Assembly (NCBI GenBank): GCA_963762565.1 | Contig: CAVXLD010000001.1 | Location: 198,286 to 262,285, forward strand | Direction: 5' to 3' | Source of the DNA: an uncultured Verrucomicrobiae bacterium | GTDB taxonomy: Bacteria; Verrucomicrobiota; Verrucomicrobiia; Chthoniobacterales; JAFAMB01 | DNA length: 64,000 nt | Part shown: positions 4,331 through 63,471 of the stretch, piece after piece | Numbering within the stretch: position 1 is the first letter of the stretch | How the letters are laid out: each line of letters begins with the position of its first letter | Notes under the pieces: generated by a model | What the model was told of the DNA's origin: nothing | What the model saw: the letters and a program-made list of their open reading frames with translations, nothing else | Databases searched by the model: none | Translations under genes and position numbers: made by a program

Positions 4331-4532
4331 CGGAGCTGGGAGGCGTAAGTGGACGTAGTGGACGAAGTAGACGTAGTGGACAAAGTGGACCGGGAGTGGA
4401 CGATTTAACTCCTCGCCGCCGAATCTGAGGACGTCCACTCCGTCAACTCAGTCCATTCCGTCCACTCCTGTCTACTCGGCCGCCCATGCCCGGCGCACCC
4501 CTACTAGCTCCTAGATTCCAGCTCCTAGCTCC
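4331..4532. repeat. Nested palindrome of 9-nt arrays in the aroC / lysR divergent region
   Basis: Six GTAGTGGAC-type units (4345-4401) are mirrored by five GTCCACTCC-type units (4433-4477). An outer ggagctgggagg (4332-4343) is mirrored by ctagctcctagattccagctcctagctcc (4504-4532). Confidence 0.85.
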
Positions 4533-7792: not shown

Positions 7793-7937
7793 TAGCGAAT
7801 CGGCGTGTGGGCGAAACGGCGAAAGGGCGAAATGGAAGCCGTACGGCGAAAGTTTCGGTGCGCCCATGACGTGCAACTTTCTATCGATGCCGACGCGCCG
7901 AGATTTTCGCCCTTTCGCCCATTCGCCCATTCGCCGG
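7793..7937. repeat. Array-bracketed element H1 (GGCGAAN arrays)
   Basis: Left gtgtgggcgaaacggcgaaagggcgaaatgg. Right ttttcgccctttcgcccattcgcccattcgccgg. The 67-nt core ends in gcgccgag, like a family-A left arm. Confidence 0.75.
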
Positions 7938-21061: not shown

Positions 21062-21783
21062 AGCCAGCGGCGCGCTCCCTGCAAAATTCCATTTTCGATT
21101 GGGATCGCCCGAGATGGAACGGACGGTTGCTGTGGCTAATTGTGTTTTCTTTAGGCCTACACTTCGCGGGACTTTACGTTTTCCATGTTGTTTACCCGTC
21201 AACCACTTCTCTGCCTCCCCCAGCGGCTCAAGTCTCGGTACTGAATCCACAAAACCCACAGGACCGCCGGCTCCTTGATTGGGTGGACCTAAACGATCCG
21301 TCTGCGATTAGCGCCCCCAAAGTAGACGACAGCCTGGTCGCAAAATTAGTCCCGGGTTATCGTCCGACGTTTAGCGACGAGACCCCTGAAATCCGGAAAA
21401 GCCAGGCCGGCGCCCCAGCCCAGGAGGCGGCTACTCCTTCGCTTTTTACTCCCGACAATCTTTTCCCTAGGCAAGTCAGGCCTGCTTCTGTTCAACGGAA
21501 GACCAGTTTCGCAAGCCACCTTGAGTTCGGGCCCGCCTTGGAAAATAGAAAACCGGCCACACCGGAGAGACTCCCGACCAGCCAGCGGCTCTCAGAACCC
21601 ACGACTTTCTTTGTGGGAATCAATAAGAAAGGCGAAGTAAAATACCTTTTTCTATTGCGAACTTCGGGAAATGATCAGCTGGATCATCTTGCCGAAGAGG
21701 CTGTTAAGCAGCTGAGATTTCAGCCCGATAACACCGAGAGCTGGGACACGGTTTCGCTGCAGTGGGGCAGCGGCGGGAAGTGA
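21058..21783 (+). CDS. TonB-like / hypothetical anchored protein
   Basis: GTGA overlap with exbD. N-terminal TM, Pro-rich linker, and a C-terminal ~70 aa (VKYLFLLRTSGNDQLDHLAEEAVKQLRFQP) compatible with a TonB C-terminal fold. Weak assignment. Confidence 0.45.
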   Translation: MKPAARSLQNSIFDWDRPRWNGRLLWLIVFSLGLHFAGLYVFHVVYPSTTSLPPPAAQVSVLNPQNPQDRRLLDWVDLNDPSAISAPKVDDSLVAKLVPGYRPTFSDETPEIRKSQAGAPAQEAATPSLFTPDNLFPRQVRPASVQRKTSFASHLEFGPALENRKPATPERLPTSQRLSEPTTFFVGINKKGEVKYLFLLRTSGNDQLDHLAEEAVKQLRFQPDNTESWDTVSLQWGSGGK

Positions 21784-21990
21784 TTAGTGATTAGTGATTA
21801 GTGATTGGTGATTGGTGGGGCGCTGGGGCGATGAAAAAACGTGTAACATGGACGCGGACTGGCACTAATACACTTATAAGTCCCGTCTTGTCATAAGCCC
21901 CATCGATATCAGCCGCGCACATCCTTGCTCTAAACGCTTTTCCATCAGCCCAGGCACCCACTAATCACCAATCACTAATCACCAATCACC
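21781..21990. repeat. TGATTAG/TGATTGG array-bracketed element (A-related variant)
   Basis: The left 5 heptamers begin with the TGA stop of the tonB-like gene and are followed by tggggcgctggggcg. Right cccactaatcaccaatcactaatcaccaatcacc. The core lacks the canonical A TIR. Confidence 0.8.
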
Positions 21991-24780: not shown

Positions 24781-24939
24781 GGGGCGTTTGGCGTTCGGCG
24801 TTCGGCGTTTGGCGTTCGGCGTTCGGCGTTCCTATGATTCGAAATGATTGCAACACTGCGGATCTGTCGTGGCTCGTGAGCAAGCGACGCGCGTTATTGA
24901 AGCGCCGAACGCCAAACGGTGAACGCCGAACGCCAAACG
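24781..24939. repeat. Array-bracketed element G1 (GGCGTTY arrays)
   Basis: Seven GGCGTTY units (24781-24830) start 1 nt after the fabF stop. A 71-nt core follows. The inverted array gcgccgaacgccaaacggtgaacgccgaacgccaaacg is at 24902-24939. Confidence 0.85.
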
Positions 24940-25800
24940 AGTAAGTACGTCGTTCTTCTGCTCCTGACCGCATTGTTTTGGTCGTTGGGAGGAGTCCTCA
25001 TCAAGTCCATCGATTGGAATCCTGTCGCCATTGCGGGTTCGCGAAGCTTGATCGCCGTCTTCCTAATCGCCATCCTGCGACCGTCCGCCGTCCGTAAATT
25101 TTCCTGGACCGCATTCTTCGGCGGAATCGCCTACATGGTGACAGTTGTGTTGTTCGTGATTGCAACCAAGCTGACAACCGCTGCCAATGCCATTTTTCTC
25201 CAGTACACGGCTCCGATTTATATCGCTCTGATAAGCCCATGGCTTTTGAAGGAACGTGTTCGTCGACTGGACTGGATTCTGATCGGTCTTGCTTTCGGCG
25301 GAATTGCTCTCTTTTTCTGCGACCGGCTCTCCTTTGCCGGAATTTGGGGAGTAATGGCCGCACTTGTCAGCGGCTTCTCCTACGCGTGGCTTACGATGCT
25401 GTTGCGTCGCCAAAAATCGGCATCCCCCGAAGCCACGGTGTTCATAGGCAACTTGATGACTGTGTTAGTGGCGGCTCCGGCGATGTGGCCGCCGGTGAAC
25501 CTGGGCCATAATTGGCCTTGGCTGCTTGCCTTGGGCGTCCTCCAGCTCACGATTCCCTATTTGCTTTATACACAGGCTATCCGGCATGTGCGTGCGCTGG
25601 ATGCATCTATAATCAGCATGATCGAGCCGATCCTTAATCCGATCTGGGTCATGTTTGCCGTGGGCGAACATCCCGCCAGATGGGCAATCGTCGGAGGATG
25701 CATGGTCCTGGGAACCTCTTTGCTACGGAGTATCTTCGCCTCGCGCGAGCCCGAATCCGAATTCGCCTTAGGCTCATCCGGAATGACAAATGACAGATGA
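24919..25800 (+). CDS. DMT (EamA) family transporter
   Basis: About 10 TM helices in two EamA-like halves. The start is uncertain because the first codons lie in the GGCGTTY-type array. The stop and last ~13 codons lie in element F1. Confidence 0.75.
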   Translation: MNAERQTSKYVVLLLLTALFWSLGGVLIKSIDWNPVAIAGSRSLIAVFLIAILRPSAVRKFSWTAFFGGIAYMVTVVLFVIATKLTTAANAIFLQYTAPIYIALISPWLLKERVRRLDWILIGLAFGGIALFFCDRLSFAGIWGVMAALVSGFSYAWLTMLLRRQKSASPEATVFIGNLMTVLVAAPAMWPPVNLGHNWPWLLALGVLQLTIPYLLYTQAIRHVRALDASIISMIEPILNPIWVMFAVGEHPARWAIVGGCMVLGTSLLRSIFASREPESEFALGSSGMTNDR

Positions 25801-25902
25801 AAAATGACAGATTGGGAAATCCTTCGGTCACACGCGTTCTATTTCGGACATTTGTCATCTGTCATTTGTCATTTGTCATTCGAAACGAGCCTCAGGCGAG
25901 TT
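25760..25902. repeat. Family F element, copy F1 (143 nt)
   Basis: aattcgccttaggctcatccggaATGACAAATGACAGATGAAAAATGACAG, core attgggaaatccttcggtcacacgcgttctatttcggac, then the inverted TGTCATY array and cgaaacgagcctcaggcgagtt. Confidence 0.9.
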
Positions 25903-26329
25903 TCGCCGTGTACGTATTCGCAGTGCCAGACAGACACACGACTCCATCCTGATTGCGCACAGTGGTGGCAAGCGTGCAGATCGGTTTGTCGTCACGAACA
26001 GTTGTGACTTCAACCCTGCCGGTAATCACATCTCCGACGTAGACTGCTTTAACAAACTTCCATTCTACCCCGAGAAACACCGTGCCGGGGCCAGGGAGAT
26101 CTTCGGCCACGATCGCGTTCAAAATTCCGGAAGTGATGCCTCCCTGAACGATCAATCCGCCAAACACTGATCTCCCAGCAACTTCGCGGTCATAATGTAA
26201 CGGATTCCGGTCGCCGGTGATCTCTGTAAATAGCGCGATGTCGCGCTCGCTGACTGTTCGGGATCGCTCTGCCGAATCGCCAACTCTCGGTTTCCCACGA
26301 ATTGTTCCCGCCCAACCGTCACTCTTCAT
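25892..26329 (-). CDS. MaoC-family (R)-specific enoyl-CoA hydratase/dehydratase
   Basis: 145 aa hot-dog fold. ITGDRNPLHYD motif. Confidence 0.85.
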   Translation of the reverse strand: MKSDGWAGTIRGKPRVGDSAERSRTVSERDIALFTEITGDRNPLHYDREVAGRSVFGGLIVQGGITSGILNAIVAEDLPGPGTVFLGVEWKFVKAVYVGDVITGRVEVTTVRDDKPICTLATTVRNQDGVVCLSGTANTYTAKLA

Positions 26330-26343
26330 GATGTGACCTCCGG

Positions 26344-26486
26344 ACTCGCCTTAGGCTCGTCCGCAATGACAAATGACAAATAACAGATGACAGATTGGGA
26401 ATTCCTTCGGTCACACGCATTTCTATTTCGGAGATTTGTCATTTGTAATTTGTCATCTGCCATTCCGAACGAGCCTCAGGCGAGTT
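26344..26486. repeat. Family F element, copy F2 (143 nt)
   Basis: Same layout as F1. Core attgggaattccttcggtcacacgcatttctatttcggag. The right end ccgaacgagcctcaggcgagtt supplies the stop of the ABC ATPase gene. Confidence 0.9.
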
Positions 26487-27231
26487 CGGCTTCTGTGAGC
26501 GCTGCTAACACCCGTTCCTTCCAAGCCGTGAAGGCATGATCCTGTCGAGAACGAGGCCGAGGAAGATCGATCCGAAATTGGCGATGAATTTGTCCGGGGC
26601 GTCCCTTGATCACAACGATGCTGTCGGATAATGCGACCGCTTCTTCAATATCGTGCGTCACGAAAAACATGGTCAACGAATGCCTCGCAAAAAGCTCCAT
26701 CAAATGGTCTTGCAGCCGGCTTCGGGTGAGAGCATCGAGGGCGCTAAACGGCTCGTCCAGCAATAGAAGAGATGGTTTTCGCACTAAGGCTCTGGCTATC
26801 GCCACCCTTTGAGCCATCCCTCCCGACAATTGGCGCGGGTAATAATGGGAGAAGGATTCTAAACCAACTTGCTCCAGAATTTCCTTCGCCAACGCTCCGA
26901 TCCGGCTATGCCCGGCCGGGCCGAACCCGAATTCCACATTTTGGCGAACGGTCAGCCACGGCATGAGTCGGGGCTCTTGAAACACGACGCCTAGGTTGGG
27001 GCGTTCGGCATTTGGCGTTTGGCGTTCGGCGTTCGGCGCACGATCGCTATCCCAGCGGATTTCTCCGGAGGTCGGGCGCTCAAGTCCAGCTAGAATCCGC
27101 AACAGCGTGCTTTTGCCCGAGCCGGTCGTACCCACCATCACCGTGACTTGTTGCGGCTCGATCGAAAGCTCAAGATTAGCAATCACCAAAGCGTCACCGT
27201 AAGCCTTCGTTATCTGATCGATTCTTACCAT
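26476..27231 (-). CDS. ABC transporter ATP-binding protein, NitT/TauT (SsuB/TauB-like) family
   Basis: Walker A GTTGSGKST, signature LSGGMAQR, Walker B LLLLDEP. The true start is probably MVRIDQI at 27231, since the track start at 27330 reads through element F3. It contains an in-frame heptamer-array insertion. Confidence 0.9.
   Translation of the reverse strand: MVRIDQITKAYGDALVIANLELSIEPQQVTVMVGTTGSGKSTLLRILAGLERPTSGEIRWDSDRAPNAERQTPNAERPNLGVVFQEPRLMPWLTVRQNVEFGFGPAGHSRIGALAKEILEQVGLESFSHYYPRQLSGGMAQRVAIARALVRKPSLLLLDEPFSALDALTRSRLQDHLMELFARHSLTMFFVTHDIEEAVALSDSIVVIKGRPGQIHRQFRIDLPRPRSRQDHAFTAWKERVLAALTEAELA
26994..27042. repeat. GGCGTTY heptamer array inside the ABC ATPase coding sequence
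   Basis: ggttggggcgttcggcatttggcgtttggcgttcggcgttcggcgcacg. Translated on the minus strand it gives APNAERQTPNAERPN, between the Walker A region and the VVFQEPRLMPW Q-loop. Confidence 0.85.
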
Positions 27232-27243
27232 TGAACTCGCTGA

Positions 27244-27377
27244 GGCTCCTTCAAGATGACAATGACAGATGACAGATGACAAATGTCCGAAATAGACCGC
27301 GCGTGACCGAAGGATCTCCCAATCTGTCATCTGTCATTTGTCATTCCGAACGAGCCTCAGGCGAGTTCGGCTGATAG
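27244..27377. repeat. Family F element, copy F3 (core inverted relative to F1/F2)
   Basis: aactcgctgaggctccttcaagATGACAATGACAGATGACAGATGACAA, core atgtccgaaatagaccgcgcgtgaccgaaggatctcccaatc, then TGTCATCTGTCATTTGTCATtccgaacgagcctcaggcgagtt. Confidence 0.9.
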
Positions 27378-28216
27378 GCGTCCTGCCAGTGCAACGCACG
27401 CTCGGAAACCCAGGCCAAGCATCCGTCAGTCGATTTTCCGCACAGAGCGAATAACAAGATGCTGGTGATCAAAGTGGCGGGACGACCGGTGGTTTGTCCA
27501 TCGATCAGCAGAAACCCGAGACCATGGGTTGCTCCCATGAATTCTGCTGCGACTACAAACATCCAAGCCAGACCTAAACTCTGTCGAAGCCCTACGAAAA
27601 TGGCCGGTAAACTTGCGGGGAGAAATATTCTTCGAGCCAAGCTCCACCCCTTGAAGCCGTTCACCAACGCAACCTCAACCAGTTTCCGGTCAACGCTACG
27701 GATGCTGCTCACGAGCGCCAGGTAGAGCGGAAAGAACGCCCCCAGCGCAATCAAGAGGATCTTCGAGGTCTCAAAAATTCCGAACCACAGAATGAAAAGA
27801 GGGACCCAAGCATACGAAGGTACGCTTCGAATCGCGTGAATGGTCGGGTTGAGTAATCGATACGCGGTTGAGCTAATGCCCGTAACGGTTCCGAGCACTA
27901 TCGCAACTGCGCTGCCTAGACCGAAGCCGCTGAAGACTCGGACAAAAGTGGCCCAGAGATGGACCCAGATCTGCCCGCTCCAAAGCAAACGATTGATTTC
28001 AGCCAGGATCTCGGTTGGCGAAGAAGTAATTGTCCGGTCTAACCATCCAAGGCGAGACGCCATTTCCCAGGCGGTTAGTGCGATTGCCGGAACCACAAAA
28101 CCAAGCAAACTCCATCGCCGGCGCCATTTGACAGGAGTCCGGACTCTATCTCTCGCAGTCTTAGATTCCAAGACATCGACTGGCTCAGCGGCAGGGAGCA
28201 GCGTAGAAGTCGCCAT
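27341..28216 (-). CDS. ABC transporter permease, NitT/TauT (SsuC/TauC-like) family
   Basis: BPD-transporter-type membrane protein. Start preferred at MATSTLL (28216), because the track start at 28255 lies inside element D1. The last ~12 codons are read from element F3. Confidence 0.85.
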   Translation of the reverse strand: MATSTLLPAAEPVDVLESKTARDRVRTPVKWRRRWSLLGFVVPAIALTAWEMASRLGWLDRTITSSPTEILAEINRLLWSGQIWVHLWATFVRVFSGFGLGSAVAIVLGTVTGISSTAYRLLNPTIHAIRSVPSYAWVPLFILWFGIFETSKILLIALGAFFPLYLALVSSIRSVDRKLVEVALVNGFKGWSLARRIFLPASLPAIFVGLRQSLGLAWMFVVAAEFMGATHGLGFLLIDGQTTGRPATLITSILLFALCGKSTDGCLAWVSERALHWQDAYQPNSPEARSE

Positions 28217-28230
28217 TTCTTGGTCCCCTC

Positions 28231-28524
28231 TTGTGTCCTGTCCCATAAGTAACATGGCTTTCGCCGTCGGCCAGTTGGCTGTTTTTCAAGGCGCGAGCGA
28301 AGCGCCCATATCTGGTTCATACGGGTCGAGCGAGCAACGCGGAAAAACAGCCAACTGGCCACGGCCCGGAGGGTTGCGATGAAAATGGGCCGGCGGCTGC
28401 GTTGCTCGTCGGTTACGTATCGATCAAGATATGCGCCCTCTACCGCCAGTCCGGCTCGGACCGCCTTGCCGGCGGCCCATTTTGATCGCAACGAAAGCCA
28501 TGTTACTTATGGGACAGGACACTA
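28231..28524. mobile_element. Family D MITE-like element, copy D1 (294 nt)
   Basis: About 33-nt TIRs: tgtgtcctgtcccataagtaacatggctttcg / cgaaagccatgttacttatgggacaggacacta. It fills the gap between the SBP stop (28522-28524) and the permease start (28216). About 96% identical to D2. Confidence 0.9.
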
Positions 28525-29649
28525 GTTGGCAGTCGCGATCCGATCCGCAAACGAGGGATCGAGCAATTCATTCACGATCCTGTCCACGTCGGTGTTGGGA
28601 TCGATGATTCCGTTCGCTTTCAAGGCGTTGGCGGAATCCAGAATAACCTGGCGCTGAGTCGCTCCGAGCCGCGAATCCTTCAGGTTGGTCCTTTCCCACA
28701 CCTTCTCCGCAACGGCCGGGCTTAATTGAGCCGCTGACTGTAGGATGGTACGCGCTTCGTCCGAATGATCCAGGCACCACAGGCGGGCTTTCTCATAAGT
28801 TCGGAGAACGCGCTCAGTAATATCCGGATGCTCGAAAGCGAAAGCTTCCCGTACGTTCAATACCCCGAAACTGTTCCAATCCGCTCGGCGAAAAAACAGC
28901 TTAAATCCCTTGTCGACCTCTAGCTGTGCCATGTACGGATCCAGCCCGGCCCAAGCATCGACCTGCCCCCGTTCCAACGCGACTTTGCCGTCGGGATGCT
29001 GCAAAGGTACAACCTGGATATCCTTTTCGCTCAACCCAGCGGAGGCGAGTGACCGCAAAAGAAAAATATGAGGATCAGTTCCGCGAGTCACGGCCACGCG
29101 TTTGCCACGCAGATCTTCGATCCGCGTTATTCCGGAGCTTGGGCTTGTTACCAGCGCGGTCCATTCGGGCGCAGAATAAACGTAAATCGCTTTGATTGGG
29201 TTGCCGTTTGCTCGCCCGATAAATGCCGCCGCTCCCGCGGTTGAGCCGAAGTCGACACTTTTGCCCCTTAGATACTCCAGCGCTTTGTTACTACCCAGGC
29301 TCTGCACCCACTCCACCTTGATGCCGCTTGAGCCCAGATCCTCCTCTAGCCATTTCTTGTCCTTGAGCACCAGGCTAATCGGATTGTAGTACGCCCAATC
29401 GACTCGAACGGTGTCGACGCTTCCGGCCTTGGAAAATTCGCCAAACCAGAGCGACCCAAACAAACACATAAGGGACAAAATCGAGCTCAGGCGACCTCGC
29501 CTCGGTGATGGCTTAGTTGTGTCACCGTACGCGCGAGGGGGATTGTACCTCGGGCTGCCATGCCTGGAAGATCGAAGTCGGACGGAAAGAATACTGTGCT
29601 GATAGGGTTTCACCCTCCCCATCTCTAGATGTAATCCGCCCGAACGCAA
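28522..29649 (-). CDS. ABC transporter substrate-binding protein, NMT1/SsuA-like
   Basis: Periplasmic-binding-protein pattern (VRVDWAYYNPISLVLK..., AVTRGTDPHIFLL). The start codon is uncertain, with several in-frame ATGs between 29469 and 29649. Confidence 0.8.
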   Translation of the reverse strand: MRSGGLHLEMGRVKPYQHSILSVRLRSSRHGSPRYNPPRAYGDTTKPSPRRGRLSSILSLMCLFGSLWFGEFSKAGSVDTVRVDWAYYNPISLVLKDKKWLEEDLGSSGIKVEWVQSLGSNKALEYLRGKSVDFGSTAGAAAFIGRANGNPIKAIYVYSAPEWTALVTSPSSGITRIEDLRGKRVAVTRGTDPHIFLLRSLASAGLSEKDIQVVPLQHPDGKVALERGQVDAWAGLDPYMAQLEVDKGFKLFFRRADWNSFGVLNVREAFAFEHPDITERVLRTYEKARLWCLDHSDEARTILQSAAQLSPAVAEKVWERTNLKDSRLGATQRQVILDSANALKANGIIDPNTDVDRIVNELLDPSFADRIATAN

Positions 29650-30018: not shown

Positions 30019-31053
30019 ATGATGAACTATCGTTTACTCGGTCGGAGCGGGCTGCGAGTTTCGGAGCTCTGCTTAGGAACCATGACCTTCGGGGAAGATT
30101 GGGGTTGGGGAGCTCCCAAGGATGAAGCACGGAAAATCTACGACGCGTTTCGCGAAGCCGGCGGCAATTTTATCGATACGGCTAACGTTTATACGCAGGG
30201 TTCGAGCGAAACCTTTCTCGGCGAGTTCTTTTCGGAACACCGTGATAGCGTGGTTCTCGCCACGAAATACACCAATGCGCTAACCACCAATGACCCGAAT
30301 GCCGGGGGAAACCAGCGCAAGAATATGATGCAAGCCGTTGAAGGCAGTTTGCGTCGCCTGAAAACCGATTACATCGACCTCTATTGGCTTCATATCTGGG
30401 ATCAAATGACGCCAGTTGAAGAAGTGATGCGCGCCTTCGATGACCTGGTTCGCCAAGGTAAAGTCCTTTATGTCGGCGTTTCCGATGCACCTGCCTGGTG
30501 GATCAGTAAAGCGAATACGATCGCTGAGCTCCGTGGATGGTCGCCCTTCGTCGGTCTGCAGATTGAGTATTCACTGATCGAACGTACGGTCGAACGGGAG
30601 CTGATTCCGGCAGCGAAACATCTTGGGCTCACGGTCACCGCCTGGTCACCTTTAGCGGGTGGCGTTCTCACCGGCAAATATGCGTCAGGCGAAGCCACCG
30701 ACTCCCGTTATTCTACCGAAATGATGAAACAATGGTTACCAGAGCAAACTCGGACTGCTCGCATCGTTGAGGCTCTTCAGAATGTCAGTAAACAGACCGG
30801 ACGGAGTAAAGCCCAGATCGCATTGGCTTGGCTGCGACATCGCGCCGTCCCGGTTATCCCTATTGTGGGCGCCCGCAAACTGACTCAGCTTGAAGACAAC
30901 ATCGCCAGTCTGACACTCACTCTCACTCCGGACCAACTGGCCTTATTGGATGAGGCCAGTCAGATCGAGCTCGGTTTCCCGTACCACTTCTACGCTAACG
31001 AGATGGTCCGCACGTTCGTGTACGGCGGTGTAAGGGACCACATAATCACGTGA
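30019..31053 (+). CDS. Aldo/keto reductase
   Basis: YRLLGRSGLRVSELCLGTMTFG, IDTANVY and LYWLH motifs. Confidence 0.9.
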   Translation: MMNYRLLGRSGLRVSELCLGTMTFGEDWGWGAPKDEARKIYDAFREAGGNFIDTANVYTQGSSETFLGEFFSEHRDSVVLATKYTNALTTNDPNAGGNQRKNMMQAVEGSLRRLKTDYIDLYWLHIWDQMTPVEEVMRAFDDLVRQGKVLYVGVSDAPAWWISKANTIAELRGWSPFVGLQIEYSLIERTVERELIPAAKHLGLTVTAWSPLAGGVLTGKYASGEATDSRYSTEMMKQWLPEQTRTARIVEALQNVSKQTGRSKAQIALAWLRHRAVPVIPIVGARKLTQLEDNIASLTLTLTPDQLALLDEASQIELGFPYHFYANEMVRTFVYGGVRDHIIT

Positions 31054-31345
31054 TTAGTGATTAGTGATTGGCGATGGCGCTGGTCGGGCGAGGCTCCCGA
31101 AAGAACTAAAGTCTCTAACGAAGATCCAGACGTTTCGGCCTGAAAGAGTTTGTTAGGCCGATCGGTGTGCCGAGCCGTGGTTCCGCGCGTAACCCGGCTC
31201 GGCGCGTTGCTAGAAGTAGCATGCCTTCTTAATTCGGAATGCGAAGGGAGATGGAAAATCACAGAGTCTTTCGGGAGCCTCGCCCTACCAACGGCGTCTC
31301 ATCCACCATCACCTCTCACCAATCACCAATCACTTCTCACCTTCT
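31051..31345. repeat. Family A element, copy A5 with inverted TGATTAG-type arrays
   Basis: The array starts on the aldo/keto reductase TGA stop. TIRs 31082-31101 / 31270-31289. Central hairpin gccgagccgtggtt-ccgcgcgt-aacccggctcggc. Right array atcaccaatcaccaatcact (to ~31345). Confidence 0.9.
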
Positions 31346-33564: not shown

Positions 33565-33858
33565 TAGTGTGCTGTCCCATAAATAACATGGCTTTCGCCG
33601 TCGGTCAGTTGGCTGTTTTTCAAGGCGCGAGCGAAGCGCCCATATCTGGTTCATACGGGTCGAGCGAGCAACGCGGAAAAACAGCCAACTGGCCTCGGCC
33701 CGGAGGGTTGCGATGAAAATGGGCCGGCGGCTGCGTTGCTCGTCGGTTACGTATCGATCTAGATATGCGCCCCTTACCGCCAGTCCGGCTCGGACCGCCT
33801 TACCGGCGGCCCATTTTGATCACAACGAAAGCCATGTTATTTATGGGACAGCACACTA
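33565..33858. mobile_element. Family D MITE-like element, copy D2 (294 nt)
   Basis: TIRs tagtgtgctgtcccataaataacatggctttcg / cgaaagccatgttatttatgggacagcacacta. About a dozen substitutions versus D1 and no indels. Confidence 0.9.
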
Positions 33859-40944: not shown

Positions 40945-41762
40945 AATCCCTCTTCAGTTACTATCGATGGTTGGTCTTGCTTCTGGTAGCGAGTTTTTGC
41001 CTGGTTCCATTGTGGGCAACCGTCGTGGGTGGGTTTAAGTCGACGGGTGACCTCCGTACGAATGCTCTCGGCTTGCCCCGGCAGTGGCTGGTAGACAATT
41101 ATATTTCCATCGTCTCGACTCCGCGGTTTTGGCAGATGCTTTGGAATTCGGCTGTGATCGCCTTTTTCACGGTCGTACTAACATTGATAGTCAGTTCACT
41201 AGCTGCATATACTCTAGCTCATTTGCGCTTCGCTGGGCGCAAATGGATCGCCAACTACCTGACCCTGGGACTGACTTTCCCGTTCGCCACTGCAGTCTTG
41301 CCAGTATTTATTCGGGTTCGCGATCTCGGCCTGCTCGACACCTACTGGGGCGTCATCCTCCCCCAAGTCGCCTTTAACTTAAGCTTTAGCATCGTGTTGC
41401 TGCGCGGTTTCTTCTCAGAGTTACCAAAGGAATTGTTTGAAGCTGCGATCATGGATGGTTGCAGTTATCCACGAATCTTTTTGCGCATTACCCTGCCGCT
41501 CTCTCGCCCGATCCTGGCCACTGTCGGCGTTCTGGCTCTGGTCGGAAGCTGGAACAACTTCCTTTTGCCATTGGTTACCATCAATGACGACTCCGTTTAT
41601 CCATGGCCTTTAGGAATCATGCAGTTTCAAGGTCAATACAGCACCGACTGGGGGAAGGTGCTGGCTTTCGTAACCCTCACCATGCTTCCCGCTATCACGC
41701 TGTATCTGATGGCCCAGAAACAGGTCATTGCCGGCCTTACTTCGGGAGCCGTTAAGGGTTAG
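40941..41762 (+). CDS. Carbohydrate ABC transporter permease
   Basis: MalG-type permease with the loop EAAIMDGCSYPRIFLRITLPLSRP. ATGA overlap with the upstream permease. Confidence 0.85.
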   Translation: MKSLFSYYRWLVLLLVASFCLVPLWATVVGGFKSTGDLRTNALGLPRQWLVDNYISIVSTPRFWQMLWNSAVIAFFTVVLTLIVSSLAAYTLAHLRFAGRKWIANYLTLGLTFPFATAVLPVFIRVRDLGLLDTYWGVILPQVAFNLSFSIVLLRGFFSELPKELFEAAIMDGCSYPRIFLRITLPLSRPILATVGVLALVGSWNNFLLPLVTINDDSVYPWPLGIMQFQGQYSTDWGKVLAFVTLTMLPAITLYLMAQKQVIAGLTSGAVKG

Positions 41763-41897
41763 CGTTTGGCGTTTGGCGTTCGGCGTTGGCAGTTGGTAGC
41801 GCTCGAGCTCAGTAAGCGGTTTTCTTCTACATAGCGCTCATTATTTTGGGACGACCACGGCCGCCTTTCACCTTTCACTTCTCACTGATCACTAACC
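41763..41897. repeat. Hybrid array element G2 (GGCGTTY array left, CCTTTCA/CTNATCA array right)
   Basis: cgtttggcgtttggcgttcggcgttggc starts 1 nt after the permease stop. Right side cctttcacctttcacttctcactgatcactaacc. The two arrays are not complementary. Confidence 0.7.
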
Positions 41898-50796: not shown

Positions 50797-50992
50797 GGGC
50801 GAATAGGCGAAACGGCGAGTGGGTCAATGGGCGAAAAGGCGACAACGCGTCAGAATCATCTCTGAACGCTATGGCAGAAAACTCGACGGTCTCGCGACAC
50901 GAGTTGCTGTTTCAGACAAACGCAGCGGTTTTGAGCCGTTCCGCGGGCACCCTCGCCGTATCGCCCTTTTCGCCCACTCGCCGTTTCGCTCC
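50797..50992. repeat. Array-bracketed element H2 (GGCGAAN arrays)
   Basis: Left gggcgaataggcgaaacggcgagtgggtcaatgggcgaaaaggcgac. Right cctcgccgtatcgcccttttcgcccactcgccgtttcgctcc. 107-nt core. Confidence 0.8.
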
Positions 50993-51007
50993 CGCGTCCG
51001 GAAACGT

Positions 51008-52279
51008 TCACAATCCACTTTCCGCAACCCAGCGGTGCATCTCACCCTCTGCGACTGGACCAACCACTGCCAGACCCATACGGGTGGGATCAAAACAAAG
51101 ACGCGCAACCGATTGGATCGCTTCCGGAGTGACTTCTTTGACTTTCGCCTGGACCTCTTCCGGATGAATCACGTGCTCGTAAGCGATGATCGATTCCCCC
51201 ATCCACATGATCTGATTAGTGGTGCTCTCCAAGCTAAGTTCGTTTTGGCCGATCGTGTATTCCTGCGCCTGGTGAAGCTCTTTCTCGGTCGGCGGCTCCT
51301 CACAGACTCTCTCCAATTCGTGCCGGATCGCTCGCAAGGCGCTCTTTAATTTGCCCGGTTCCAATCCGACGCAAATGCTCATCAATCCTGAATCTTCGAG
51401 CACCAACGTTCCACTATGGACAGAGTAACAGTAAGCGTAACGCTCCCTGAGCTGTTGGAACAGGCGGGAACTCATATTTTCGCCCAGGATGACGCTGAGG
51501 ATCTTCAGAGCGTGGCGCCGGTCATCGTTGCGATCGATGGCATGATAACCCAACGCTAAATGGGTCTGTTCTGTTCCTTCCTTGGCTACCGCCATCCGGT
51601 CCTTAACTTTGGTTCCTTTCCAGCGATCAAATTCGGGCGGAGTCCCAGCTGGCAGGTCCGCCATCGTTGATTCGAATTTGCTGACGACCTCGTTATGGCG
51701 GCAACATCCCCCAACCGTGATGACCGTGGTACAGCCGTTATAATTCCGCTCCATATATTGAACCAGATCGGGCCGCCGGATGCGGCCGATTGATTCCAGC
51801 GAACCGGTCAACGGCCGGCCCAGAGCGTGACGCGGCCACATCACTCCGCTTAACAACTCTTGCGAGAGCTGGGAGGGTTGATCCCGATACATCAAAATCT
51901 CTTCGCGAATAACGTCGCGTTCTCGCTCGATCTCGACGTCCGCCAGCAACGAGTTGCGAAACATGTCGGTCAGCACATCCGCCAGGATATTGAAGTAATG
52001 AGCTGCCGCTTTTGCATAAAAGCAGGTGTGATCTTCGGTCGTGAAGGCGTTGATAAATCCGCCCACTCCTTCTACCTCCTCAGTCAACCGTTGAGCATTC
52101 CTCGTTTTGGTCCCCTTAAATAGAAGATGCTCAAGAAAGTGGGAGATGCCGCAGTGTTCCTCAGGCTCGTGACGACCGCCCACTGCAACCCAGATACCTA
52201 CGCTGACGCTCTTCATGTGAGGCATCTCGCAGGTCGCTACCCTAATTCCATTCCTGAGCTTTGTTGTCTGATATATCAT
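51008..52279 (-). CDS. M16 family (pitrilysin-like) zinc peptidase
   Basis: HFLEHLLFKGT inverted zinc-binding motif (HxxEH). Confidence 0.85.
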   Translation of the reverse strand: MIYQTTKLRNGIRVATCEMPHMKSVSVGIWVAVGGRHEPEEHCGISHFLEHLLFKGTKTRNAQRLTEEVEGVGGFINAFTTEDHTCFYAKAAAHYFNILADVLTDMFRNSLLADVEIERERDVIREEILMYRDQPSQLSQELLSGVMWPRHALGRPLTGSLESIGRIRRPDLVQYMERNYNGCTTVITVGGCCRHNEVVSKFESTMADLPAGTPPEFDRWKGTKVKDRMAVAKEGTEQTHLALGYHAIDRNDDRRHALKILSVILGENMSSRLFQQLRERYAYCYSVHSGTLVLEDSGLMSICVGLEPGKLKSALRAIRHELERVCEEPPTEKELHQAQEYTIGQNELSLESTTNQIMWMGESIIAYEHVIHPEEVQAKVKEVTPEAIQSVARLCFDPTRMGLAVVGPVAEGEMHRWVAESGL

Positions 52280-54834: not shown

Positions 54835-54883
54835 TCTGGTGGTTATCCATTCGTGGTTCGTAAACGGCCAGAGGTGGTCCGGC

Positions 54884-55200
54884 AGTAAGCGGTAAGCAGT
54901 AAGCAGTGGTCAGTACTACGAGCTAAAATCCAGGAGCTAGGAGGGCCGACGGCTGTGGAGCGTGCCTCGCTTGCGAGTCCGTGGTGAGCAAGGCTCATTA
55001 CGTGACATCCCCATCGTCGGCGTACGCTCTTTTGTCTGAAGAGGCAAACCTTGCGATACAGAGCGCTGACCGACATAGGGCATGTGTCGTGGTTCACCCT
55101 TGCTCTCCAACGGCCTCGCAAGCGAGGCACGCTCCACGGCCGTCGCCCCTCCTAGCTCCTAAATTCTAGCTCCTAGCTCCTAAACTGCTTACTGCTTACT
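54884..55200. repeat. Family E element, copy E2, with two nested layers of inverted arrays
   Basis: AGTAAGC units then AGCTAGGAG units on the left. TIRs 54955-54993 / 55098-55137. CTCCTAGCT units then GCTTACT units on the right. Confidence 0.9.
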
Positions 55201-63342: not shown

Positions 63343-63413
63343 CGTCGCCGATACGCCCATTCGCCCTTTCGCCCGTTCGCCGATACGCCCACACGCCGAC
63401 ACGCCCATACCCC
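63343..63413. repeat. One-sided NTTCGCC-type array upstream of cdsA
   Basis: cgtcgccgatacgcccattcgccctttcgcccgttcgccgatacgcccacacgccgacacgcccatacccc. No mirrored partner on the left of B4. Confidence 0.7.
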
Positions 63414-63471
63414 CCAGCTACCTCTGGACGCCACGTGCCCATTATGGCAGGCTCCGCCGCAACATTCCTTC

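Follow-up and report, generated by a model that had tools for sequence, protein, structure and literature searches.

An array of heptanucleotide repeats, reading RAACGCC on the coding strand and GGCGTTY on the opposite one, lies in frame within the ATPase gene of an ABC transporter in the stretch of DNA analysed here (64,000 nucleotides at its full length, hereafter the window). At this site, 36 nt of repeat (five units, 12 codons) replaces 12 nt (4 codons), which lengthens the gene on balance by 24 nt, or 8 codons. We consider it probable that the array is a heptanucleotide simple-sequence repeat (SSR) of slippage origin tolerated in a variable loop, where it makes a near-neutral extension of the protein while selection filters its length variants for reading frame.

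The array and its host gene

The sequence ggcgttcggcatttggcgtttggcgttcggcgttcggc, singled out in the initial annotation, was found at window positions 27000-27037, and Tandem Repeats Finder assigned to the array positions 27000-27038, with a period of 7, 5.6 copies, 87% matches and the consensus GGCGTTC. When the three-unit pattern GGCGTTYGGCGTTYGGCGTTY was searched with at most two mismatches, 14 matches were obtained in the window compared to 0.00 expected from 100 dinucleotide-preserving shuffles. These matches clustered at three places, the genic site (4 of the 14), 24783-24941 and 41761-41788. No Rfam family reached the gathering threshold anywhere in the window. The features of the gene cluster and of the genic array are the following:

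26476..27231, minus strand: ATP-binding subunit of an ABC transporter, 251 aa, of the NitT/TauT (SsuB/TauB/NrtD-like) type
26995..27003, minus strand: ancestral Arg-Pro-Asn codons CGC CCC AAC, forming a degenerate sixth unit, GCCCCAAC; RPN is conserved in orthologues
27004..27039, minus strand: twelve repeat-encoded codons, A65-E76, APNAERQTPNAE; four variable codons in orthologues, derived with respect to all outgroups
27341..28255, minus strand: permease (BPD_transp_1) of the transporter, from the ORF and the Pfam annotation of orthologous genes
28522..29649, minus strand: NMT1-type substrate-binding protein of the transporter, from the ORF and the Pfam annotation of orthologous genes

The coding strand reads ...GEIRWDSDR-APNAERQTPNAE-RPNLGVVFQEPRLMPW, and its translation agrees with the earlier placement of the array inside the coding region of the ABC ATPase, between GEIRWDSDR and RPNLGVVFQEPRLMPW. 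The units on this strand are GC + GCCGAAC GCCGAAC GCCAAAC GCCAAAT GCCGAAC, of which the fifth ends one base past 27004, and in codons the window has GCG CCG AAC GCC GAA CGC CAA ACG CCA AAT GCC GAA, followed by CGC CCC AAC. The array is short and imperfect (five units, three unit variants). It consists of a tandem 7-nt unit repeated head to tail in at least three copies, far beyond chance, as defines a heptanucleotide long simple-sequence repeat (LSSR).

The ORF, as called, spans 26476..27330 on the minus strand. Its start was set at 27231 because all homologues begin with MV(R/T)ID, and the 33 codons upstream of it come from reading through a palindromic element in the intergenic DNA. The gene lies downstream of the binding-protein and permease genes, and it was found adjoining NMT1-type binding protein and BPD_transp_1 permease genes in the neighbourhoods of loci L001, L002 and L039-L046. 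The protein contains an ABC_tran NBD (Pfam PF00005, E=7.9e-37) in which the Walker A, Q-loop, signature, Walker B and H-loop motifs are all intact; the sequences GTTGSGKST, FQE, LSGGMAQR, LLLLDEP and THD were invariant across an alignment of 31 proteins with identities from 98% to 43% (alignment A1). The top NCBIfam models were of the SsuB, PhnT2, TauB and NrtC/D types, every one of them below its equivalog cut-off (202.8 bits against 395 for SsuB, 193.1 against 357 for TauB). Therefore, the ATPase was named without a substrate, 'sulfonate' being only a JGI label.

The dN/dS ratio of the ATPase gene was 0.10-0.14 with respect to outgroups and 0.16-0.32 within the clade that carries the array. 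With the catalytic motifs intact and dN/dS at 0.10-0.32, the gene therefore stayed functional after gaining the array. At the other end of the gene, strains are set apart by an indel of 1 nt (gene position 745), from which two C-termini result, …TEAELA and …TDANSP (window 26476-26490); the downstream palindromic element starts there.

A structural model was run as proposed in the initial annotation, and in it the insert is predicted to be an unstructured loop of an otherwise confident NBD. The AlphaFold2 model, built from alignment A1, had a mean pLDDT of 88.6 and a pTM of 0.85, and its only internal segment with pLDDT below 50 was residues 64-75, the insert. This segment was modelled as coil, flanked by strands 55-60 and 80-83, the second of which leads to the Q-loop glutamine Q85. 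Foldseek matched the model to the NBDs of NrtC/NrtD and CmpC/CmpD with TM scores of 0.81-0.86. We take the hairpin of strands 55-60 and 80-83 to belong to the peripheral antiparallel-beta subdomain of the established ABC NBD architecture. Judged by general NBD architecture and by its low pLDDT, the loop would be surface-exposed, away from the coupling-helix groove and from the Walker A/signature dimer interface.

Ancestral state and length alleles

In alignment A1, the extra segment was present only in the window protein and in P0001, which is 99% identical to it. The other 29 proteins had four variable residues between DSDR and RPNLG (RNSA, GSGV, RSMG, GGNG and others), and the homologue columns at the insert site were themselves variable. 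The shorter linker that had been suggested for the homologues is thus what was found in all of those outside one species-level clade, none of which carries a linker of equivalent length. In the alignment with the solved NrtC (8wm7_C), the gaps across the insert total 8 residues.

At the DNA level, 24 of 24 orthologous loci, taken from genomes and metagenomes at 79-88% protein identity, had 12 nt at the site, for example CGG AAT AGT GCG, and then CGA CCG AAC; one of them, L026, had RPD instead of RPN. In L044, the closest outgroup, the codons CGC CCC AAC were identical to those of the window and were preceded by GGC GTA, making up a weak proto-repeat. The sixth unit, GCCCCAAC, was not inserted, because it corresponds to the pre-existing Arg-Pro-Asn codons that are identical in L044, and it is possible that these codons were the proto-unit or seed of the array. 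Therefore, the initial proposal of an in-frame insertion held, but not its size of about six units (42 nt), a figure that describes the extent of the repeat-like sequence and not the net gain. Comparison of these sequences shows the array to be a derived feature, restricted to a single species-level clade.

P0001 belongs to a 90% cluster of 16 members, and the DNA of the genic allele was compared in the window and in seven other strains, sampled separately in ENA and JGI data. Over 2.4 kb of DNA, the strains are 97-99.5% identical to each other and ~82% identical to the outgroups. An assembly artefact is excluded for the array, since it appears in the eight independently assembled contigs and also in proteins of NCBI MAGs. 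Seven of the eight strains (the window, L001, L040, L041, L042, L045 and L046) carry the five-unit allele. The remaining one, L039 (protein P0126, 244 aa), has two units, GCG TCG AAC GCC GAA CGC CCC AAC, and its allele is exactly 21 nt shorter, that is, three units or seven codons. The expectation that unit number would vary among strains in multiples of three was thus borne out by the sole length variant, a rule that rests on this one event (n=1). No allele differing by ±1 or ±2 units was detected among the eight DNA alleles and four further proteins of the cluster.

Nine derived sites join L039 with the window, L040 and L042 to the exclusion of L001 and L041, which have the long allele, and one site opposes this grouping. 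As L039 is nested in this way among long-allele strains, its short allele is most simply explained as a secondary contraction by three units. The opposite order, with the short allele first, was considered given the resemblance of L039 to the outgroup L044, but was rejected on account of the same derived sites. Within the insert, proline 66 is replaced by arginine in L040 (P66R, CCG>CGG) and by serine in L039 (P66S), and a synonymous change, AAC>AAT, is found in the window alone. The insert is under low constraint.

GGCGTTY arrays elsewhere and the origin of the genic array

Arrays of the same family recur at unrelated sites, at 24783-24939 and 41761-41796 of the window and elsewhere in L002, L005 and L017. 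Those of the window are the following:

24783..24831, plus strand: intergenic (GGCGTTY)7, left arm of an inverted pair, directly after the stop codon of a ketoacyl-synthase gene
24903..24939, plus strand: right inverted arm of RAACGCC units (~5), which provides the GTG start codon and the seven initial codons (MNAERQT) of an EamA-family ORF
41761..41796, plus strand: solo intergenic array of the GGCGTTY family, ~4-5 units

The two arms of the inverted pair are separated by a spacer of 71 nt, and the right one accounts for the repeat that had been noticed at the 5' end of the EamA-like gene. L001 lacks the spacer, the right arm and the 5' end of the EamA gene, and L002 has an unrelated palindrome at this site. 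The left arm varied among strains, with 7, 9, 6, 5 and 6 units and a different order of unit variants. Such single-unit changes show that slippage by single units occurs where nothing constrains it. Both the genic and the intergenic GGCGTTY arrays are thus polymorphic in copy number between close strains, which is a further defining feature of LSSRs.

The window contains ~29 arrays of period 7-9, mostly intergenic inverted pairs forming palindromes, and the genic array is the only one of them deep in a conserved gene. The same exclusivity was observed among 146 arrays of period 7-9 in 275 kb of related loci, which are orthologous and so not independent. Other arrays that seemed intragenic, in the window and in the related loci, were dismissed as over-extensions of ORFs or as spurious ORFs, for instance 50819-51349.

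Other repeated elements were observed around the transporter genes. A palindromic element of ~140 bp is present in three copies (window 25759-25902, 26340-26493 and 27233-27371), with arms made of AATGACA/TGTCATY heptamer arrays and a centre of ~40 nt that is inverted in the third copy. Every gap on either side of the ATPase and MaoC genes contains one copy. The elements occur as well in the lineage of 82% identity represented by L002, and they produce over-extended ORFs such as MTDWEILRS.... The gene for a MaoC-like dehydratase (25892-26329), which has a palindromic copy on each side, is absent from three of the eight strains of the clade (L001, L042 and L046), and recombination between the flanking elements would explain its deletion. 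A MITE-like element of 296 bp occurs twice (28230-28525 and 33565-33858), with 96% identity between the copies and terminal inverted repeats of 33-34 nt; of the strains compared, only the window and L001 have the one that separates the binding-protein gene from the permease gene. Many more inverted pairs, made of tandem 7-, 8- or 9-nt units that differ in sequence, lie at 4347-4477, 7810-7935, 21779-21990, 31050-31342, 50798-50989, 54882-55182 and 63346-63414. The genome seems to generate palindromes from short tandem repeats, of which no description was found for Verrucomicrobiota.

As for coding potential, the claim that GGCGTTY/RAACGCC arrays are free of stop codons in all six frames was confirmed, and GGCGTTY alone among the heptamer families of the window stays open whichever strand is read. 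As 7 and 3 are coprime, a stop in one register is enough to close every frame over a run of three units. That the stop-free unit explains why this family occurs inside a gene fits the data, an explanation that rests on one genic event. RAACGCC is on the coding strand in both coding uses, the ATPase loop and the MNAERQT start of the EamA gene; in this orientation the repeat encodes N-A-E/K-R-Q/R-T-P, which is hydrophilic and contains proline, and on the opposite strand G-V-R/W-R-S/L-A-F. The orientation accords with the stop-free idea in these two cases only.

A protein query of (NAERQTP)n gave 86 matches, all shorter than 100 aa and nearly all hypothetical ORFs without domains or N-terminal over-extensions. 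None was a full-length domain protein carrying a long array in its interior, with a query that is blind to inserts as short as 12 aa. The matches include ORFs of Burkholderia, so that the unit is widespread. Among small 'hypothetical proteins' of B. pseudomallei and B. multivorans, P0140, P0143, P0156 and P0217 are translated (GAACGCC)n, or (ERRTPNA)n; therefore, a unit of the GGCGTTY type also forms an LSSR in an unrelated phylum.

RAACGCC belongs to a family of units scattered through this Chthoniobacterales genome. On the preferred reading, an array of this family would have arisen in, or been copied into, the four variable codons of the loop that immediately precede the Q-loop strand. Replication slippage, for which the ancestral ...CGC CCC AAC proto-unit may have been the seed, would then make length variants, from which selection would purge those that break the frame. 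The N-A-E/K-R-Q/R-T-P peptide would be a neutral or nearly neutral extension of a surface loop, with no dedicated function; we infer this neutrality from its being hydrophilic, proline-containing and stop-free. A caveat of the preferred reading is that no intermediate was seen between the ancestral state of four codons and the array of five units. In addition, the genic array already holds both unit variants found across the family, GAACGCC and AAACGCC, and such a mixture could reflect copying from another array and not growth from one proto-unit.

The G/A mixture, shared with the dispersed family, also bears on an alternative that differs from the preferred reading only in the route by which the array arrived. 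According to it, the array would have been left behind by an insertion of mobile or templated origin, as either an arm of a palindromic MITE/REP-like element or a patch of gene conversion from another GGCGTTY array. A two-armed inverted GGCGTTY element (24783-24939) does lie ~2.1 kb away, palindromic elements with heptamer arms sit between every gene of the cluster and are tied to presence/absence polymorphisms, and ~12 nt of ancestral sequence were replaced, not merely added to. However, the second arm, the spacer and the target-site duplication of a MITE are all absent near 27000-27038, the 3'-most unit is ancestral coding sequence, so that a local proto-repeat existed, and the G/A variation falls at a CpG-type position spanning the units, where parallel transitions could recur. 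We regard this alternative as unlikely.

A broader proposal is that Chthoniobacterales have an active, undescribed heptamer-array process that, besides scattering palindromic arrays through intergenic DNA, would repeatedly write new coding sequence such as loop insertions, start codons and N-termini, among them the MNAERQT of the EamA gene. The genic array would be one case of this general de novo route to peptide segments, or else a frame switch or the antisense target of complementary (GGCGUUY)n arrays in 3'-UTRs. If such a process operated, stop-free units that encode hydrophilic peptides, such as RAACGCC, would be preferentially recruited. We hold this proposal to be quite improbable.

The chances are slimmer still that the array is a contingency locus for phase variation, in which slippage by ±1 or ±2 units would switch the ATPase off and on. 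Heptanucleotide SSRs inside ORFs have been proposed as mediators of phase variation in Haemophilus influenzae (PMC2651432), and the intergenic GGCGTTY array does slip by single units. In L045, moreover, the ATPase gene is split at the array; however, the lesion, a 1-nt deletion with no change in units, occurs on a contig where several more genes are broken and is probably a long-read consensus or assembly error, for which reason it was discarded as evidence of phase variation. No out-of-frame unit allele was found in the alleles and cluster proteins listed above, the array is short and imperfect, and the gene encodes a cytoplasmic subunit of housekeeping type, under purifying selection in a free-living soil lineage.

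Least credible of all is an adaptive loop whose eight extra residues give the NBD a new interaction or regulatory surface: all sampled strains of the clade but one keep five units in a gene under purifying selection, and NBDs of the family can be regulated by partners (NrtC was solved with PII, according to the title of the structure entry), but a deletion of seven residues and the non-conservative P>R and P>S changes are tolerated within the insert, the peptide is the plain translation of the repeat with no further sequence features, and it is predicted to be disordered.

Significance and comparison with known repeat systems

The genic array offers a natural experiment in which a repeat with a unit length indivisible by three lies inside an essential-type enzyme gene, with ancestral, derived and revertant-like three-unit alleles available and with the intergenic GGCGTTY array of the same strains as an internal control. 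It would present the frame filter at work (7 x 3 = 21 nt), and it marks out a loop in which the ABC NBD can accommodate between 1 and 8 additional residues. More generally, soil Verrucomicrobiota carry dense families of heptamer and palindromic repeats, which mislead gene callers into N-terminal over-extensions and spurious small ORFs and are associated with differences in gene presence or absence between strains.

The heptamer arrays at first pointed to a cyanobacterial host, but this origin, and with it an assignment to cyanobacterial STRR in the strict sense, was rejected, as the related loci and proteins are of Verrucomicrobiota/Chthoniobacterales and the related contig L001 encodes sigma-54; GGCGTTY is also not known to be among the STRR unit consensus sequences. 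The STRR of Calothrix and Nostoc and the GGGNATC repeats of Xanthomonas and Nostoc resemble the present arrays in being families of heptamers with variable copy number, enriched in non-coding DNA near the ends of ORFs (PMC4692102). The phylum and the units differ, and the arrays described here are typically inverted pairs that form long palindromes. As they have no G-tracts, no G-quadruplex role is expected for GGCGTTY arrays.

The heptanucleotide SSRs of H. influenzae (PMC2651432) share with the present array a tract inside an ORF in which the change of a single unit would shift the frame. They comprise those of the hmw promoters and the intragenic AATTTTG and AACAACC tracts, with 8-38 perfect units and out-of-frame alleles, and lie in or upstream of a pathogen's genes for surface proteins and iron-uptake receptors, whereas here five imperfect units lie in the gene of a cytoplasmic ATPase and the only variant is in frame.

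Another parallel is the TAACTGA repeat of marine Beggiatoaceae (MacGregor 2015, PMC4679880), which also forms abundant heptamer arrays at gene boundaries. In that work, it is argued that the stop codon content of each orientation decides where the arrays can sit, and arrays in reverse orientation inside ORFs are reported to encode a repeating heptapeptide. Whereas either strand of GGCGTTY is open, TAACTGA is closed when read forward. The Beggiatoaceae ORFs that contain the repeat have no apparent similarity to each other outside it, in contrast to the well-conserved ABC ATPase described here, with its known ancestral state and an allele that differs by three units.

The class to which the genic array conforms is that of the LSSRs. 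Heptanucleotide repeats are the commonest class of long SSR in many bacteria, polymerase slippage is proposed as their mechanism, and LSSRs in coding regions usually have units of multiples of three (Mrazek et al. 2007, via PMC4679880; PMC4692102). As in those accounts (PMC4679880, PMC4692102), the arrays of this genome are made of tandem 7-nt units and are dispersed, mostly intergenic and variable in copy number among strains, and Burkholderia, listed there as an LSSR-rich genus, also has translated RAACGCC arrays. The differences are that the array reported here sits deep in a conserved enzyme gene although 7 is not a multiple of three, and that the host belongs to Verrucomicrobiota; a literature search for heptamer repeats in Verrucomicrobia or Chthoniobacter found no description of them. 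The genic array works like an LSSR and has the defining features of one, by an ordinary mechanism and not as a new biological system.
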